From the IMG/VR virus record IMGVR_UViG_3300032116_000032, positions 72,113-136,112 of that record: a DNA stretch of 64,000 nucleotides; one strand, written 5' to 3'. Positions 27,700 through 48,017 of the stretch are shown here, in pieces (position 1 is the stretch's first letter; each line of letters starts with the position of its first letter). Origin of the DNA: a virus. The position numbers and the translations under genes are program-made. Below the pieces are notes generated by a model. It made no database searches, had not been told where the DNA came from, and saw nothing but the letters and a program-made list of their open reading frames with translations.

Positions 27700-28500
27700 A
27701 TGAAAGACAAAAACACAGGGGCACCTATCAATCAGGATGAGATTTATCACTACCTTAAAGATATTAGAAAAATTAAGGTAATGACTGCAGAACGCGAACG
27801 TCATTTAGCCACACGAATGAAGTCGAATGATCTTACCTTGATTGAAAAACAACAAATTGAGGAAGAACTTTTAACAGGAAACCTACGTTTTGTAATAACA
27901 GTTGCAAAACAATATCAAAATCAAGGTTTAGATTTGTCAGATCTTATTGCAGAAGGTAATTTTGGTTTGATGAAAGCAATCAAGAACTTTGATTGGAATA
28001 AAGACTTACGTTTTATATCTTATGCTGTTTGGTGGGTTAAACAATCCATAATCCAATCTTTGAACGATAATTCGAGAACGATCCGTCTACCGGTAAACGT
28101 TGTCCAAGACTTACAAAAGGCTAAAAAGGAATTAGAGCAAACAGGAAAAAAACTTGACGACAAGTTCCAAACTTTACCATCTATCATAGATTTGGATATG
28201 AATATCAATGAAGACGGTGATACTTTGATTGATATGATTGAGAATAAAGACGCTGTAGCACCTGACGCTAGTTTTCACACAAAAGACATATTAAAAGATA
28301 AGTTAATGAGACTTTTAGATGTTTTGGATGAAAGAGAAAAAGTCATTGTAGGTGATTACTTTGGTTTAACAGGAACACCAAGAACATTGGAAGATATTGG
28401 ATCTGACTTTGGTTTAACAAAAGAACGTGTTCGTCAAATTAAAGAAAAAGCTCTTCGTAGACTTAGAAATGATTCTTCCGAATTATTTGATTATTTATAG
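27700..28500 (+). CDS. RNA polymerase sigma-70 factor, Bacteroidota primary-sigma-like (no region 1.1)
   Basis: NLRFVITVAKQYQNQGLDLSDLIAEGNFGLMKA..NFD...FISYAVWWVKQSI (region 2); TLEDIGSDFGLTKERVRQIKEKALRRLR (region 4). Confidence 0.93.
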   Translation: MKDKNTGAPINQDEIYHYLKDIRKIKVMTAERERHLATRMKSNDLTLIEKQQIEEELLTGNLRFVITVAKQYQNQGLDLSDLIAEGNFGLMKAIKNFDWNKDLRFISYAVWWVKQSIIQSLNDNSRTIRLPVNVVQDLQKAKKELEQTGKKLDDKFQTLPSIIDLDMNINEDGDTLIDMIENKDAVAPDASFHTKDILKDKLMRLLDVLDEREKVIVGDYFGLTGTPRTLEDIGSDFGLTKERVRQIKEKALRRLRNDSSELFDYL

Positions 28501-28698: not shown

Positions 28699-29922
28699 AT
28701 GAATAAAAAATTTTTACCCTGGTTTTTATTGTTTTGTGCTTTAGGATTGTCAGGGACTGCCGCTTATTATAGTGTTATAGGTTTATCAATAATTTTCTCA
28801 GCTGTTGCAATTCCTGTTATTATAATGGGATCGTTTTTAGAAATATCTAAACTTGCAATTGCAACCTATCTACACGACAAATGGAAAGAAACTTACGGAG
28901 TTTTGAAGATCTATCTTACAATGGCCCTTGTAGTTCTTTCAATTCTAACTTCTGTTGGTATCTACGGGTTACTTTCAACAGGATTCCAAAAAAATATTGC
29001 GGGTCTTGAAATTAACAATAAAGTAATTGAAAATATTGAAGTTAAAAAAACTCGATTCGAAGAAATCAAAACTGACTATCAAAAAGAGAAAAGTGTTTTG
29101 GACAAAGATATCACCAATTTAAGAAACGCCCTCTCAACTAACACAACTACCCAATCAATAGATAGAACGACGGGACAGGTCATTACAAGAGCAAATGGAG
29201 GTAATAGAAAGGCTTTTGAGACTCAGTTAAAAGTTGCTCAAGAGAATAGAGATGGAATATCAAAGAAAATTGAATCCCTTAATGATAGTATTACTAGATT
29301 AGATTTAGAAATATTAGATCTTGCTTCCACAGAAATTGAATCAGGTGAGTTAGGTGCAATCAAGTATTTAAGTGAGATTACAGGTTGGGATGTTAAAAAA
29401 ACTGCTAACTTTTTTATTCTAACTCTGATATTTGTGTTTGATCCTTTAGCAATTGCTTTAGTTATTTCTACAAACCAAGCATTTAAAATTTATAGAAGAA
29501 AAGATGAGGAAGAAGATAAAGTTGAAGATGAGTATCCTTTTTATGATGAGGTAGAAATACCTGAAAGTTATTTTGCAAATCATACCCCCCAAGTCACCCC
29601 CCAAGTCACCCCCCAAGTCGAACCTGAAATTGTTGAAAGAATTGTTGAAGTTCCTGTTGAAATTATTAAGGAAGTTGAAAAAATTGTTGAGGTTCCTGTG
29701 GAAGTTGTAAGAGAGGTTCCTGTTGATAGATTGGTTGAGGTTGTAAGAGAAGTTCCTGTTGAAGTGGTAAAAGAAATTGAGGTTCCTGTCGAGGTCCCCT
29801 TCAAATATTACGTAAACGATAATGGTCAAATATTTGATGATCAGGGAAATGAAGTTGAAGAAAGATTGTTTAATAAAAAGTTAGAAGAGATTGAGAAGAG
29901 GGTTTTAAAATATCAAAAATAA
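28699..29922 (+). CDS. multi-pass membrane protein with coiled coil and EVPVE repeats
   Basis: Three N-terminal TM segments, long coiled coil, a fourth TM, then TPQVx3 and repeated VEVPVEIIKEVEKIVEVPVE. Confidence 0.7.
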   Translation: MNKKFLPWFLLFCALGLSGTAAYYSVIGLSIIFSAVAIPVIIMGSFLEISKLAIATYLHDKWKETYGVLKIYLTMALVVLSILTSVGIYGLLSTGFQKNIAGLEINNKVIENIEVKKTRFEEIKTDYQKEKSVLDKDITNLRNALSTNTTTQSIDRTTGQVITRANGGNRKAFETQLKVAQENRDGISKKIESLNDSITRLDLEILDLASTEIESGELGAIKYLSEITGWDVKKTANFFILTLIFVFDPLAIALVISTNQAFKIYRRKDEEEDKVEDEYPFYDEVEIPESYFANHTPQVTPQVTPQVEPEIVERIVEVPVEIIKEVEKIVEVPVEVVREVPVDRLVEVVREVPVEVVKEIEVPVEVPFKYYVNDNGQIFDDQGNEVEERLFNKKLEEIEKRVLKYQK

Positions 29923-44041: not shown

Positions 44042-44500
44042 ATGAAAAAACAAATACTTGAAGAGCTTAATGATATTAAGTATCTTTTTAATTACAATAG
44101 AGGTAAAATTATTTCAGAACAGGAACAATTTGACGATGAAGAAGAATTCGTAGATTATGATGATATAGATTATGGTGATATGGATGATGATATGGATGAT
44201 GATGAAGAAGAATATTATCCTGAACTGAGAATACCTCATGACATGCCATCATACAAAACTAAATATAGACATAGTGATGATGATATGGAATTGGACGAAG
44301 AAATGGATCTTCCTGTAATGTTACCAGGTACAAAAGAAAAAGAAAGAACTAAGGTAACACCTGGAACTAAACCGAGAACAAAACCTAATACTCCATATAG
44401 CCCAAAACCAGGACCAAAACCGGATCCTAAGGCTAGAAATAGAAAAGATGAGATGCCTGATTGGTTAACCTTTGATGAACTTGGAATTGATTTTGAATAA
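44042..44500 (+). CDS. leader-bearing acidic/Pro-rich protein carrying the duplicated segment
   Basis: MKKQILEE...IISEQ leader; acidic block shared with 32910-34469; TPGTKPRTKPNTPYSPKPGPKP. Confidence 0.6.
   Translation: MKKQILEELNDIKYLFNYNRGKIISEQEQFDDEEEFVDYDDIDYGDMDDDMDDDEEEYYPELRIPHDMPSYKTKYRHSDDDMELDEEMDLPVMLPGTKEKERTKVTPGTKPRTKPNTPYSPKPGPKPDPKARNRKDEMPDWLTFDELGIDFE
44131..44283 (+). repeat. 141-bp direct repeat, copy 2 (+12-bp insertion)
   Basis: Matches 33257-33397 with an extra TATGGATGATGA unit. Confidence 0.92.
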
Positions 44501-44501
44501 T

Positions 44502-45737
44502 ATGAAAAATTTAAGAAAAAAATTATACACTGAAGGTTTACCAAAATCTGAATTTGTTAGACTATTGGAAGCCCCAATTGACTATGAAGGTCCTGAAAGA
44601 ATGGCTGGAGATGTTGAGGGAAAAATCACCGGTAAAAAAACCCCCTACCATAATTTTCCTGCTATCCCTAATATGGATAAAGACTTTGTTGAATTAATAT
44701 CTTCCAAGAGATTCAAAGACTCAGTTGACAAAGTTAGAATGGCTATGGGTGATACAAGAATTATACAAGGTCAAAATGCTTTAATGCAGTTAATGGGAAC
44801 TGTTGGTCAAGCGATGCAAAGACTTGTTATGATTCAGTCACAAAACAAAAAACAACTTGAAGATTTGGCTATTGAACTTGTAAAAAAAGAAATGGGTATT
44901 CCTGAAGGGGCAATGCAGTTCAAGGCTGAACTAATGACACAACCTATGGGTGCCGCAGAAGGGATGAAAGATGAAGCCGAAATGCCAAGTGAAGAAGAAA
45001 TTGAAGAGTTTATGGGTGACGTTGAAAACTTCAACTTAGAAAGAGCTAAAAGAAGATTTATTAACTCATTAATTCAAGGAGCGGCTTTCAAAGGAGGTCA
45101 CATGTATAATCTTGTAAGAAATGAAATCAATGATATCAACCCACAATTAATGAACCTTTATGCTGTTACCCAATCTTTGATGGAACATGCTTATTGGATC
45201 TTTCCTGATATGGAAGGAATGGCAGGTGGTGGCGGTGGTCAAATGGGTCAGTCAGAATATGATGATGAGACAGATCCACCAACAGTAAAAGCTAGAGCTG
45301 TTACATTCCCACTTCTTGTACACGAGTTAGTTAAAGGTGTTTATGAGGTATTTGGAACTCATGGTTTACCTGATGACCCAAAACAAAGAGAAATGGTATT
45401 AAATGCTGAAGATTCACTTCCTGCTGAGATTTGGGACTCTCGTTTAGGACCAATTTTTTGGGAGAAGTTCGTTTCAACTTACCCTATGGAATTGTTCGAT
45501 GATGATATGAAACATATCCAACATTATTTATTCATGCGTTTTTCAGCTTTAAACGCAGAAGAATTTATGAGTTTAGCTAAAAAGATCCTAAGTGGGGATC
45601 CAAAAGGACAACAAATAATTCAAAGAATGGTTGATGATATCGTTAAAGATTTAAAAGACAGAGAATATAAAGATGCCATGGGTGATGATGATGACGAAGA
45701 CTACGGCGATGTTGATCTAAGTGATTTGGGACTTTAA
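44502..45737 (+). CDS. hypothetical protein (start revised from 44472)
   Basis: Met/Gln-rich helical ORF starting 1 nt after the previous stop; HELVK segment. Confidence 0.6.
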   Translation: MKNLRKKLYTEGLPKSEFVRLLEAPIDYEGPERMAGDVEGKITGKKTPYHNFPAIPNMDKDFVELISSKRFKDSVDKVRMAMGDTRIIQGQNALMQLMGTVGQAMQRLVMIQSQNKKQLEDLAIELVKKEMGIPEGAMQFKAELMTQPMGAAEGMKDEAEMPSEEEIEEFMGDVENFNLERAKRRFINSLIQGAAFKGGHMYNLVRNEINDINPQLMNLYAVTQSLMEHAYWIFPDMEGMAGGGGGQMGQSEYDDETDPPTVKARAVTFPLLVHELVKGVYEVFGTHGLPDDPKQREMVLNAEDSLPAEIWDSRLGPIFWEKFVSTYPMELFDDDMKHIQHYLFMRFSALNAEEFMSLAKKILSGDPKGQQIIQRMVDDIVKDLKDREYKDAMGDDDDEDYGDVDLSDLGL

Positions 45738-45756
45738 TAAGTCCCATTTCTTTTTT
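45727..45756 (+). terminator. intrinsic terminator
   Basis: TGGGACT-TTAATA-AGTCCCA followed by TTTCTTTTTT. Confidence 0.6.
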
Positions 45757-45787: not shown

Positions 45788-46093
45788 ATGTTAGGTATGA
45801 AAAATATTGATTGTGAGATATACATTAAACAACTAATTTCCTTTTTTGAAAATAATCCTGGTGACTTAATGCAACTTATAGGAAACGTTCAAAAAGAAGA
45901 CTTTTATTTGAAATTAAGAGAAAAATCAGAAAACAATGTTGATGAAGGATTAGATCATGTTTTATCTAGACAACAAATGATTGACATTGTCTTGGAATTA
46001 AAGATTCCTGAACTATTTGAAAAACCAAACCCTAAGGCTGTTGTTGAAGGGTATGTCCAAAAAACAAAGTGGGGAAAAATTATTTTAAATTAA
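45788..46093 (+). CDS. hypothetical protein
   Basis: 101-aa ORF. Confidence 0.55.
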   Translation: MLGMKNIDCEIYIKQLISFFENNPGDLMQLIGNVQKEDFYLKLREKSENNVDEGLDHVLSRQQMIDIVLELKIPELFEKPNPKAVVEGYVQKTKWGKIILN

Positions 46094-46095
46094 AG

Positions 46096-46125
46096 TTGGT
46101 ATTTATTAAAAAATTATTATCTTTG
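46096..46125 (+). promoter_or_regulatory. Bacteroidota-type promoter (-33 TTG / -7 TATCTTTG)
   Basis: TTG at 46096-46098, 19-nt spacer, TATCTTTG at 46118-46125. Confidence 0.65.
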
Positions 46126-46148: not shown

Positions 46149-46265
46149 ATGAAAACTATAGAAGTAACGATACAAGAAATCTGGCAGGCAACTAGACCTA
46201 TCGTGCAAAAAAGTAAGAAATCATATACTCGTAAAGTCAAACACAAAAACAAAGAAAATAATTAA
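46149..46265 (+). CDS. 38-aa ArfA-like basic peptide (not in ORF track)
   Basis: MKTIEVTIQEIWQATRPIVQKSKKSYTRKVKHKNKENN; R..V.K.KK...SY.RK.KH.N matches the ArfA core; has its own promoter and is coupled to the next gene. Confidence 0.55.
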   Translation: MKTIEVTIQEIWQATRPIVQKSKKSYTRKVKHKNKENN

Positions 46266-46267
46266 CT

Positions 46268-47026
46268 ATGATATACACACCAGAACTAATCAAATCAATT
46301 GCACCGGCAGTATTCGCCACATCACCATCTTCTAAAATGACGAACAAGTATGAGTTCGTACCAACTAATGAAGTAATGGAGATTTTTGACCGAGAAGGTT
46401 GGAAACTGTCATCTGTAAAACAAACAGGTAGAGGTATCCATTCAATGCACGAATTAAAATACAGAAACAGTGAATTACCAAAAGTTGGTGACACAGTTGT
46501 TGAAGCAATCGTTAGAAACTCTCACGATGGAACTGCAACATTCTCTATGGGAGCAGGACTTTTCCGATTGGTATGTTCAAATGGACTTACAGTTCCTACG
46601 TCAGTAGCGGAGAAATTCTCAATTCGACACAATCACTTTTCATTCGACGATGTTCGAGGTTTAGCTGAGGACTTCTCTAAGAAACTCCCAAGAATCGAAG
46701 AGTCAGTTACTCGAATGATGGAAAAGGAGTTAACTGAAAAAGAAAAACTCCGTTTAATCAAAGAAGCGGTTAAGATCCGTTGGGCGGTTGGAAATGGACC
46801 TGAATCTATTGACATTACAGACATCCTAACACCGTTTCGACCTGAGGATGAGGGAAGTGATCTTTGGACAGTATTTAATGTGATACAAGAGAAAATGACT
46901 CGAGGTGGATTCACTTACAAAAGTCCAAGAGGAAGACAAACAACACTTCGTGGAATCAAAAGCATCCAAGCCACGAATCGTTTAAACACTAAACTTTGGG
47001 AAGCCGCTGAACTATTATTAGTATAA
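46268..47026 (+). CDS. DUF932/DUF945-family protein
   Basis: APAVFA..PS......YEFVPT, RNSHDG, GLFRLVCSNGL and DLWTVFNVIQE motifs. Confidence 0.8.
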   Translation: MIYTPELIKSIAPAVFATSPSSKMTNKYEFVPTNEVMEIFDREGWKLSSVKQTGRGIHSMHELKYRNSELPKVGDTVVEAIVRNSHDGTATFSMGAGLFRLVCSNGLTVPTSVAEKFSIRHNHFSFDDVRGLAEDFSKKLPRIEESVTRMMEKELTEKEKLRLIKEAVKIRWAVGNGPESIDITDILTPFRPEDEGSDLWTVFNVIQEKMTRGGFTYKSPRGRQTTLRGIKSIQATNRLNTKLWEAAELLLV

Positions 47027-47036
47027 AAAAAGAAAA

Positions 47037-47058
47037 GGGGGTCAGTGACCCCCATTTT
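47037..47058 (+). terminator. intrinsic terminator
   Basis: GGGGGTC-AGT-GACCCCC followed by ATTTT. Confidence 0.7.
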
Positions 47059-47063
47059 GTATT

Positions 47064-47408
47064 ATGGAAAAATTCAAACACGAAAAAAGACTTTTAGATT
47101 TCCTCATAGAGGAAAATAAAATATTGTATTCAACAATCCAACTAACGGGTTTTATTGAACTAACACCTGAAAGTTTACTTGAAAAACCAAGATTTGAGAA
47201 TTATTTATTGGACGGTATGCAATATACTGATGGGGTTTCATATTCTGATGGAATATTTATTTATGATAACAATATTTACATATATTTATCTAAAACTGAC
47301 CCATTAGTCTCTTCATTTTCTTGTAAGATATATTATCCTATAAATAGAAAAAAAGACGTTGAGTTCTTTATATTAAACCTAAAAAAATTAAAAAAAGATG
47401 GAAATTAG
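47064..47408 (+). CDS. hypothetical protein
   Basis: 114-aa ORF. Confidence 0.55.
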   Translation: MEKFKHEKRLLDFLIEENKILYSTIQLTGFIELTPESLLEKPRFENYLLDGMQYTDGVSYSDGIFIYDNNIYIYLSKTDPLVSSFSCKIYYPINRKKDVEFFILNLKKLKKDGN

Positions 47409-47712
47409 TAGTGTTGAATTACAACAAAAAATAAATGCTGGTGAAAAACTTGTGGTTGAGTTTTGGGCTGAGTGGTGTGGACCATGTAAAATGATGAAAC
47501 CAATTTTTGAAAGAGTTGCATCTTCAAACGAAAGTGAAGTCCAAATGTATACACTTAATATTGATAATAACAGAGAAGTCGCTTTAAGCCTTGGTATCAG
47601 AAGTATACCAACTGTAAAGATGTTTAATTCTGGTGAAGTGGTTGAGACAAAAGTGGGTATGATGAATGAAGGACAGATAAAAGAAATGGTAAGTGAATTG
47701 ATCAATGGATAA
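47398..47712 (+). CDS. trxA: thioredoxin
   Basis: VVEFWAEWCGPCK active site and IRSIPT cis-Pro loop. Confidence 0.92.
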   Translation: MEISSVELQQKINAGEKLVVEFWAEWCGPCKMMKPIFERVASSNESEVQMYTLNIDNNREVALSLGIRSIPTVKMFNSGEVVETKVGMMNEGQIKEMVSELING

Positions 47713-47992
47713 AATTGCAGTTGTGTTCACAATGAAGAGTTGTCCTCATTGTCACACATTTAAAAAAATGTTAGAAGAGGCTGACATTGACTTTATCGAT
47801 AGAGATATTGATGAATATGAAGAAGAATACGATATGTTTGTTGAAGTTACAGGAAATGATTTTGTACCGGCATTCATGTTAATTGAGAATCCCGAAAGTG
47901 AAACTCCTACATCAAATTTATATGCTCCTGATCGAGATTTTGAGGATATAGATGAAGGACTAAAAATAATTAAAGAATTTTACGAAAGATAA
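47705..47992 (+). CDS. glutaredoxin/NrdH-like protein
   Basis: VFTMKSCPHC..K..L...I.F...DI and FVPAF. Confidence 0.8.
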   Translation: MDKIAVVFTMKSCPHCHTFKKMLEEADIDFIDRDIDEYEEEYDMFVEVTGNDFVPAFMLIENPESETPTSNLYAPDRDFEDIDEGLKIIKEFYER

Positions 47993-47993
47993 A

Positions 47994-48017
47994 AAAACCC
48001 CTCAATCGAGGGGTTTT
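47994..48017. terminator. bidirectional intrinsic terminator
   Basis: AAAACCCCTC-AATC-GAGGGGTTTT between convergent genes. Confidence 0.8.

Follow-up and report, generated by a model that had tools for sequence, protein, structure and literature searches.

Genes and features at the locus

We analyzed a 64,000-nt stretch of viral DNA, here called the window, which is the final 64 kb of a 136-kb IMG/VR virus record and has a G+C content of 32%. The window encodes a sigma-70-family factor, a thioredoxin, and a glutaredoxin, and a scan of the 136-kb record for tRNA and tmRNA found none. On the plus strand lies an open reading frame (ORF) of 38 codons, which we found as an earlier, sequence-only reading of this DNA had described it: the product ends in ...KHKNKENN, directly followed by TAA, and no hydrophobic tail extends past the Lys-His (KH) pair. 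The ORF and its immediate surroundings comprise the following features.

45727..45746 (+), terminator-like hairpin with a T-run, 3' of a 421-aa ORF; it ends the preceding unit
45788..46093 (+), 101-aa ORF with no function assigned, directly 5' of the 38-aa gene
46096..46125 (+), candidate Bacteroidota-type promoter, TTG-N19-TATCTTTG, 23 nt 5' of the ATG
46149..46265 (+), 38-aa ORF and TAA, ATG start, encoding an ArfA-like basic mini-protein, MKTIEVTIQEIWQATRPIVQKSKKSYTRKVKHKNKENN
46149..46193 (+), residues 1 to 15 (MKTIEVTIQEIWQAT), conserved hydrophobic/amphipathic N-terminal part
46194..46250 (+), residues 16 to 34 (RPIVQKSKKSYTRKVKHKN), basic segment that aligns with ArfA residues 26 to 47, including the mRNA-tunnel segment
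46239..46244 (+), Lys31-His32, the KH motif common to ArfA and BrfA
46268..47026 (+), DUF932 gene (Pfam, 5.9e-32), starting 2 nt past the stop of the small ORF
47037..47053 (no strand assigned), GC-rich hairpin with T-runs on both strands, bidirectional and terminator-like; it ends the small-ORF/DUF932 unit

In the AF2 model of the 38-aa peptide (pLDDT of 84), residues 1 to 7 are extended, residues 8 to 15 form a helix, and the remainder is extended. The gene is present as a single copy in the 136-kb record. Synteny of a related viral locus (L006) with positions 27.7 to 29.9 kb had suggested that the window might contain a second copy; this was tested and rejected.

Conservation and selection

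Chance ORFs are abundant in this region, where 7 kb of sequence contains 72 ORFs of ≥25 aa, and the status of the 38-codon ORF as a gene was therefore argued from conservation. A tblastn search found a 60%-identical homologue in Flavobacterium phage immuto, where it is annotated as a hypothetical protein. With the immuto homologue and alignments as queries, 38 related clusters were found in a collection of 5.8 billion proteins, and 117 related loci were found on IMG/VR viral contigs. We retrieved 80 of these 117 loci (L005 to L084), and the counts of genomic context given below rest on these 80. An exhaustive HMMER search of 1.8 billion representatives yielded 194 clusters at 50% identity (E value ≤ 1e-3).

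Over an ungapped core of 33 codons compared with the window copy, synonymous sites were near saturation (pS of 0.66 to 0.9), with pN at 0.12 to 0.25, and the median dN/dS was 0.17 over the 233 pairs with measurable dS. Among 147 representatives, Y26 was kept in 146, R28 in 143, K24 in 142, and K29 in 140, followed by K31 (134; 91%), E10 (130), T7 (123), and H32 (107; 73%). The sequence-only reading had drawn attention to a motif SY.RK.KH and had named free variation of these residues among homologs as grounds for giving up its proposal. No such free variation was found across the 147 representatives. The Y, the R, and the two lysines of the motif are near-invariant and the H is kept in most representatives, but the S is variable, K being found there in 98 of the 147. 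These results indicate that the 38-codon ORF is a real, conserved gene under purifying selection.

Distribution of the family

The family is carried mainly by phages of Bacteroidota (Flavobacteriia). A pattern-limited scan of 185,579 species genomes, with limited sensitivity, returned 8 loci, mostly in Bacteroidota/Flavobacteriia MAGs (Lacinutrix, Flavobacteriales, and Crocinitomicaceae), with two unlabelled and one labelled Pseudomonas; the only isolate copy among the 8 belongs to Flavobacterium aciduliphilum DSM 25663. This isolate, which was the center of the search, was also the sole strong match among 401 sampled Bacteroidota genomes. Given these two counts, and within the limited sensitivity of the searches, we rejected a host housekeeping origin as unlikely. 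The F. aciduliphilum copy (L095, 2186-4488) is located between SIR2-family and DprA/SLOG-like genes, with a gene for a DUF4116-repeat protein upstream of the latter, and these surroundings look like a defense island or a prophage remnant.

Relationship to DUF7230

The peptide gave a collinear, sub-threshold match to the Pfam family DUF7230 (PF23876; 15.4 bits, E value = 0.021; gathering cutoff, 27 bits) and a match to phrog_6310 in PHROGs (E value = 0.0013). Both profiles are ~42 residues long, and residues 16 to 37 of the peptide match them collinearly, whereas its N-terminal 15 positions are without a match. Weak matches to DUF7230 were found in 107 of the 147 representatives, the best with an E value of 4.2e-6 and all scores seen below 27 bits. 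Judged by these profile matches, the peptide family is related to DUF7230 and stands on the edge of, or outside, the curated family. DUF7230 itself has no assigned function, and a literature search on it found no paper mentioning DUF7230. A protein-atlas feature search, which we use as a lead only, placed DUF7230 and ArfA clusters among the named neighbors.

Similarity to the ribosome-rescue factor ArfA

The sequence-only reading had proposed that the peptide is ArfA-like and had suggested a profile search with ArfA models as a check. That search went against it: the Pfam ArfA family PF03889 matched neither the ORF, at E values of ≤1, nor anything in the whole 136-kb record, at E values of ≤10, and it was not listed among the families shown for 30 and 147 relatives (gathering score, 25.5 bits; E. 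coli arfA, used as a positive control, scored 89.7 bits). Searches with the 38-aa ORF in NCBIfam and, by single-sequence phmmer, in PDB gave no match. One family member carries the JGI name ArfA.

Other comparisons bore the proposal out in part. The E. coli ArfA core given in the sequence-only reading was correct when checked against ArfA of MG1655, and BLASTP of the peptide against that protein gave 10 identities in 18 positions (pairwise E value = 2e-5). In hhalign, the family profile scored 21.2 to 23.5 against ArfA alignments (Prob, 44 to 64%), where the ArfA sets, first enterobacterial and then widened with phage-borne ArfAs, were narrow (Neff of 1.9 to 2.7). Peptide residues 16 to 34 were aligned with ArfA residues 26 to 47 with a 3-residue gap at GKG, which reproduces the alignment without GKG that the reading had put forward. 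As a control for lysine composition, we scored 150 column-permuted family profiles (mean, 8.4; SD, 1.6; maximum, 14.2), and none reached the observed score; the reversed family profile scored 14.8. When the family profile was searched against 177,635 distinct PDB sequences, 8 matches were obtained at E values of ≤10, and 6 of them, including the best (E value = 0.035), were ArfA chains. There were no BrfA chains among these matches, and no sequence similarity to BrfA was detected.

The aligned part of ArfA is functionally defined. ArfA residues 31 to 48 occupy the mRNA tunnel, and truncation at Asn47 is tolerated and gives the shortest functional form, while truncation after Met40 is not tolerated (PMC5378476). 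The Lys-His motif touches 16S rRNA and is the sole sequence feature common to ArfA and BrfA (PMC8012679, PMC6881298). In our alignment, which speaks at the level of sequence only, peptide residues 22 to 34 are paired with ArfA residues 31 to 47, which contain the Lys-His and the tunnel segment; K31-H32 of the peptide is paired with K44-H45 of ArfA, and the aligned ArfA segment ends at Asn47. Among true ArfAs (9 to 21 sequences), P23, L24, F25, E30, K34, G35, K36, G37, S38, Y39, and R41 are invariant. The peptide family retains KK, Y, and R(K) of this hallmark motif, and GKG and PLF are absent.

The peptide and ArfA (YhdL; PF03889; RF2-dependent; Gamma- and Betaproteobacteria) are both small and basic toward the C terminus, the hydrophobic/amphipathic N-terminal part of the peptide may correspond to the hydrophobic N-terminal region of ArfA, and the peptide core R..V.K.KK(...).Y.RK.KH is what aligns to ArfA residues 26 to 47. 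They differ in that residues 1 to 15 of the peptide, although conserved and amphipathic, are ~10 residues shorter than the N-terminal part of ArfA and unrelated to it in sequence (and without similarity to BrfA), and in that the window copy, which ends at a true stop codon, lacks a hydrophobic tail. They also differ in their carriers, since the peptide belongs to phages of Bacteroidota, a phylum within the FCB group (Fibrobacterota/Chlorobiota/Bacteroidota), where a survey found arfA in 0 of 1,956 genomes (PMC11633108). As PLF and GKG are missing and the N-terminal 15 residues are unrelated, we did not file the peptide as a member of the ArfA family. On the evidence of the alignments, the similarity to ArfA is specific yet marginal and is confined to ~20 lysine-rich residues of the basic half. 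The ArfA-like reading is supported by the top PDB match, the hhalign score above its controls, the retained KH, and the in-ORF terminator of a sister clade (see below); the missing PF03889 match and the absence of GKG and PLF limit this support. With only ~20 residues to compare, the likeness may stem from remote shared ancestry or from convergent adaptation to one rRNA pocket.

Comparison with other rescue factors and with phage-borne ArfAs

BrfA (YqkK) of Bacillus subtilis has a rho-independent terminator within its coding sequence and a non-stop mRNA that ends ~12 codons past the Lys-His, and part of the peptide family has the same layout (see below); BrfA, however, is chromosomal and restricted to the Bacillus group, whereas the peptide is phage-borne. 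ArfT of Francisella, of the KGG-repeat stress-protein family, recruits RF1 or RF2 to non-stop ribosomes (PMC6514570). It is short and basic, as the peptide is, but no sequence relationship was found, and the published description of ArfT is of a charged alpha-helix that often occurs as repeats.

Canonical ArfAs also occur in phages (Pseudomonas phage pf16, Salmonella phage Arash, and a few IMG/VR contigs). Like the peptide, they are encoded by small phage genes that are often unannotated or misnamed, but they retain the full PLF...KKGKGSY and their phages infect Proteobacteria. They are rare: canonical ArfA was found on 7 viral-contig loci versus 117 for the peptide family, each scan being bounded by its own search patterns. 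The pf16 ArfA (L085, 1495-1638, plus strand) is an unannotated ORF that overlaps an annotated gene on the opposite strand, and the Arash ArfA (L086, 1417-1641), a neighbor of tRNA genes, carries the label "ribosomal protein L2."

Two gene layouts within the family

The 80 loci split into two types. In the stop-terminated type, to which the window copy belongs ("EIW.ATRP," 36 to 46 aa), a stop codon follows 12 to 42 nt past the KH codons. In the run-through type, to which the immuto homologue belongs ("ERWAAS," 43 to 100 aa), the first 34 residues are conserved and the tails are arbitrary in length and sequence. A per-sequence hairpin scan found an in-ORF GC-rich hairpin with a T-run, beginning 0 to 13 nt past the KH, in 25 of 27 distinct ERWAAS-type genes; across the same loci, the background is 0.95 hairpin plus T-run sites per kb, which corresponds to 0.019 per 20-nt interval. 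In immuto (MW353175), the hairpin is located at ~67.31 to 67.35 kb. The stems vary in sequence and stay complementary (AAGGGCTC/GGGCCCTT, AAGAGTC/GACTCTT, GGGATCT/GGGTCCC, and AGGGCC/GGCCCT). RNAalifold on a MAFFT alignment of these hairpins yielded a weak consensus (-0.94 kcal/mol), since the loops are of unequal length and the stems were misaligned by MAFFT. In the ERWAAS type, >200 nt usually separate the small gene from the next one, as expected for the end of a transcription unit.

A rho-independent terminator lies within the brfA ORF, and in arfA a stem-loop leads to termination or RNase III cleavage, so that synthesis of both factors hinges on the failure of trans-translation (PMC6881298, PMC8012679). 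The predicted layout of the ERWAAS-type genes is this non-stop-mRNA design of arfA and brfA. The window copy differs from its sister clade in this respect: it has a true stop codon 18 nt past the KH, no terminator was found within 130 nt, and its RNA fold is not significant (z = -0.18). With a true stop and no in-ORF hairpin, it would be made independently of tmRNA. The earlier suggestion of a constitutively active factor that is not limited by tmRNA is thus in keeping with the window copy.

Just 3' of the in-ORF terminator, repeated palindrome-like units TTAAAG ... CTTTAAGT are present in immuto (L001, 6140-6215) and in the tails of L016, L023, L027, L039, L076, and L078. These units are conserved across loci at the DNA level and account for the recurrent "...LPKAFL" and "LSKALV" peptide tails; they could serve as a regulator site or form an array of promoters.

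Promoter and neighboring genes

The small gene had been credited with its own promoter, TTG-N19-TATCTTTG. We evaluated this by the criterion for Bacteroidota sigma-A promoters (TTG at -33, a spacer of ~19 nt, and TAnnTTTG at -7). The sequence is present at 46096-46125, but the pattern is not enriched in the window (2 occurrences versus 2.7 expected). TAnnTTTG occurs 108 times in the window versus 91 expected, and a generic sigma-70 promoter scan (22 sites versus 23 expected) was uninformative. The same TTG-N19-TATCTTTG also precedes the mini-gene homologues of L006 and L059, although these have other genomic contexts. A promoter of its own is plausible for the small gene. In six unrelated viral contigs (L010, L031, L040, L045, L058, and L064), a different motif, TTTCGTATATTTAA, is conserved ~15 to 25 nt 5' of the mini-gene, and it may be a phage-specific promoter of a kind other than the TAnnTTTG type of the window.

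Coupling of the small ORF to DUF932 had also been claimed. The 2-nt gap between the two genes in the window agrees with this, but the arrangement is not conserved: searching with an HMM of DUF932, we located DUF932 no more than 3 kb away in just 3 of the 80 loci and adjacent in none, and in phage immuto DUF932 lies 3 kb from the mini-gene. In the closest syntenic relatives (L005, L007, and L008; 79 to 82% identity), DUF932 is absent and a terminator lies 3' of the small gene. Because DUF932 is missing from these relatives and rarely near elsewhere, the coupling is local only, and DUF932 as an obligatory partner was rejected. The 101-aa ORF also precedes the small gene in L005 and L008, and a 114-aa ORF, a thioredoxin, and a glutaredoxin downstream are common to the window, L005, L007, and L008. 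In the window, the thioredoxin (104 aa) and glutaredoxin (95 aa) genes are adjacent at 47398-47992 (plus strand). They are followed at 47994-48017 by a bidirectional terminator-like hairpin with T-runs on both strands, located between the convergent glutaredoxin gene and a 231-aa minus-strand ORF.

Proposed function and alternatives

We give about an even chance to the reading that the gene encodes an ArfA/BrfA-like, release-factor-dependent ribosome-rescue peptide whose window copy is not repressed by tmRNA. The target would be a ribosome that has reached the 3' end of a truncated mRNA and stalled there. The Lys/Arg-rich half of the peptide (residues ~20 to 34, with the near-invariant KK.Y.RK.KH) would enter the empty mRNA entry channel of this ribosome, and the hydrophobic N-terminal 15 residues would lie in the A site and aid a class I release factor in hydrolyzing the peptidyl-tRNA. 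With a normal stop, no internal hairpin, and a candidate host-type promoter, the window copy would be made whatever the tmRNA activity. The immuto-like sister genes extend across their own terminator; their products would be translated from non-stop mRNA and should therefore accumulate only when trans-translation is saturated. The phage would gain by the recycling of ribosomes after mRNA cleavage by host shut-off or RNA-cutting defenses. We infer ribosome binding, release-factor recruitment, and the benefit to the phage, and a role in counter-defense is speculation. A complex prediction with the peptide alignment and RF2 of F. aciduliphilum gave no verdict (score, 0.00) and speaks neither for nor against binding.

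The likeness to ArfA might instead be lysine-rich convergence, with the peptide acting away from the ribosome as a general nucleic-acid-binding basic mini-protein, such as a DNA/RNA chaperone or a small regulator. A similarity that is short and marginal and comes with no ArfA HMM match would be in line with this, as would a nearest Pfam family, DUF7230, that has no known function and a highly varied genomic context that offers no functional clue. We consider such a protein unlikely, given that 0 of 150 permuted profiles of identical composition reached the observed score and that ArfA tops all PDB sequences, before other basic proteins. Moreover, the Y, R, K, and KH are kept at fixed spacing and not as bulk charge, and the in-ORF terminator design suits a rescue factor. 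That same design bears on another reading, in which the peptide binds the mRNA channel as a modulator or inhibitor, filling vacant 30S or 70S channels and thereby favoring phage messages or shutting off the host. The similarity to the ArfA tail and the KH motif would fit this reading equally, the N-terminal part is unlike the release-factor-contacting part of ArfA and BrfA, and the window copy would be constitutive from a candidate host-type promoter. However, it leaves unexplained the non-stop (tmRNA-dependent) control of the sister clade, which has so far been described for rescue factors, and the N-terminal 15 residues match the tail in conservation, which points to a further, specific contact. 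We hold a modulator or inhibitor of this kind to be unlikely as well, slightly more so than the nucleic-acid binder.

The 2-nt gap between the stop of the small ORF and the start of DUF932 raises one further explanation, that the ORF is a leader or coupling ORF that controls DUF932 expression and encodes a peptide with no function of its own. This is very improbable and, given that linkage to DUF932 is not conserved (3 of 80 loci have DUF932 within 3 kb, and the closest syntenic relatives lack it), close to refuted; in addition, purifying selection acts strongly on the peptide across dozens of contexts that are unrelated to one another.

To our knowledge, release-factor-dependent rescue factors are known from few lineages: ArfA from Gamma- and Betaproteobacteria, BrfA from Bacillus, and ArfT from Francisella and its relatives. 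A widespread phage family with an ArfA-like tunnel segment would, if true, extend this type of rescue to the phages of Bacteroidota. The broader form of the rescue reading, to which we give somewhat less than an even chance, is that Bacteroidota phages, whose host phylum has no known ArfA or BrfA, carry their own family of release-factor-dependent rescue peptides, in tmRNA-gated non-stop and constitutive stop-terminated forms, with which the phage would return to use ribosomes left stranded when mRNA is cut during host shut-off or by RNA-cutting defenses. If confirmed, ribosome rescue would be something that phages manipulate, the family would provide a compact natural series of peptides for studying recognition of the empty mRNA channel, and a testable function would be given to the periphery of DUF7230, now listed as function unknown.

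Other features of the window

The sigma-70-family factor gene lies at 27700-28500 (plus strand) and encodes regions 1.2, 2, and 4; in L006, the mini-gene is directly 3' of the homologous sigma gene. At 28699-29922 (plus strand) is a gene for a 407-aa predicted membrane protein with C-terminal short repeats of the PQVT and VEVPVE types, which has no Pfam match and has homologues in L006 and L028. A 152-aa ORF at 44042-44500 (plus strand) encodes a protein with an extremely acidic, D/E/M-rich center followed by a Pro/Lys-rich tail.
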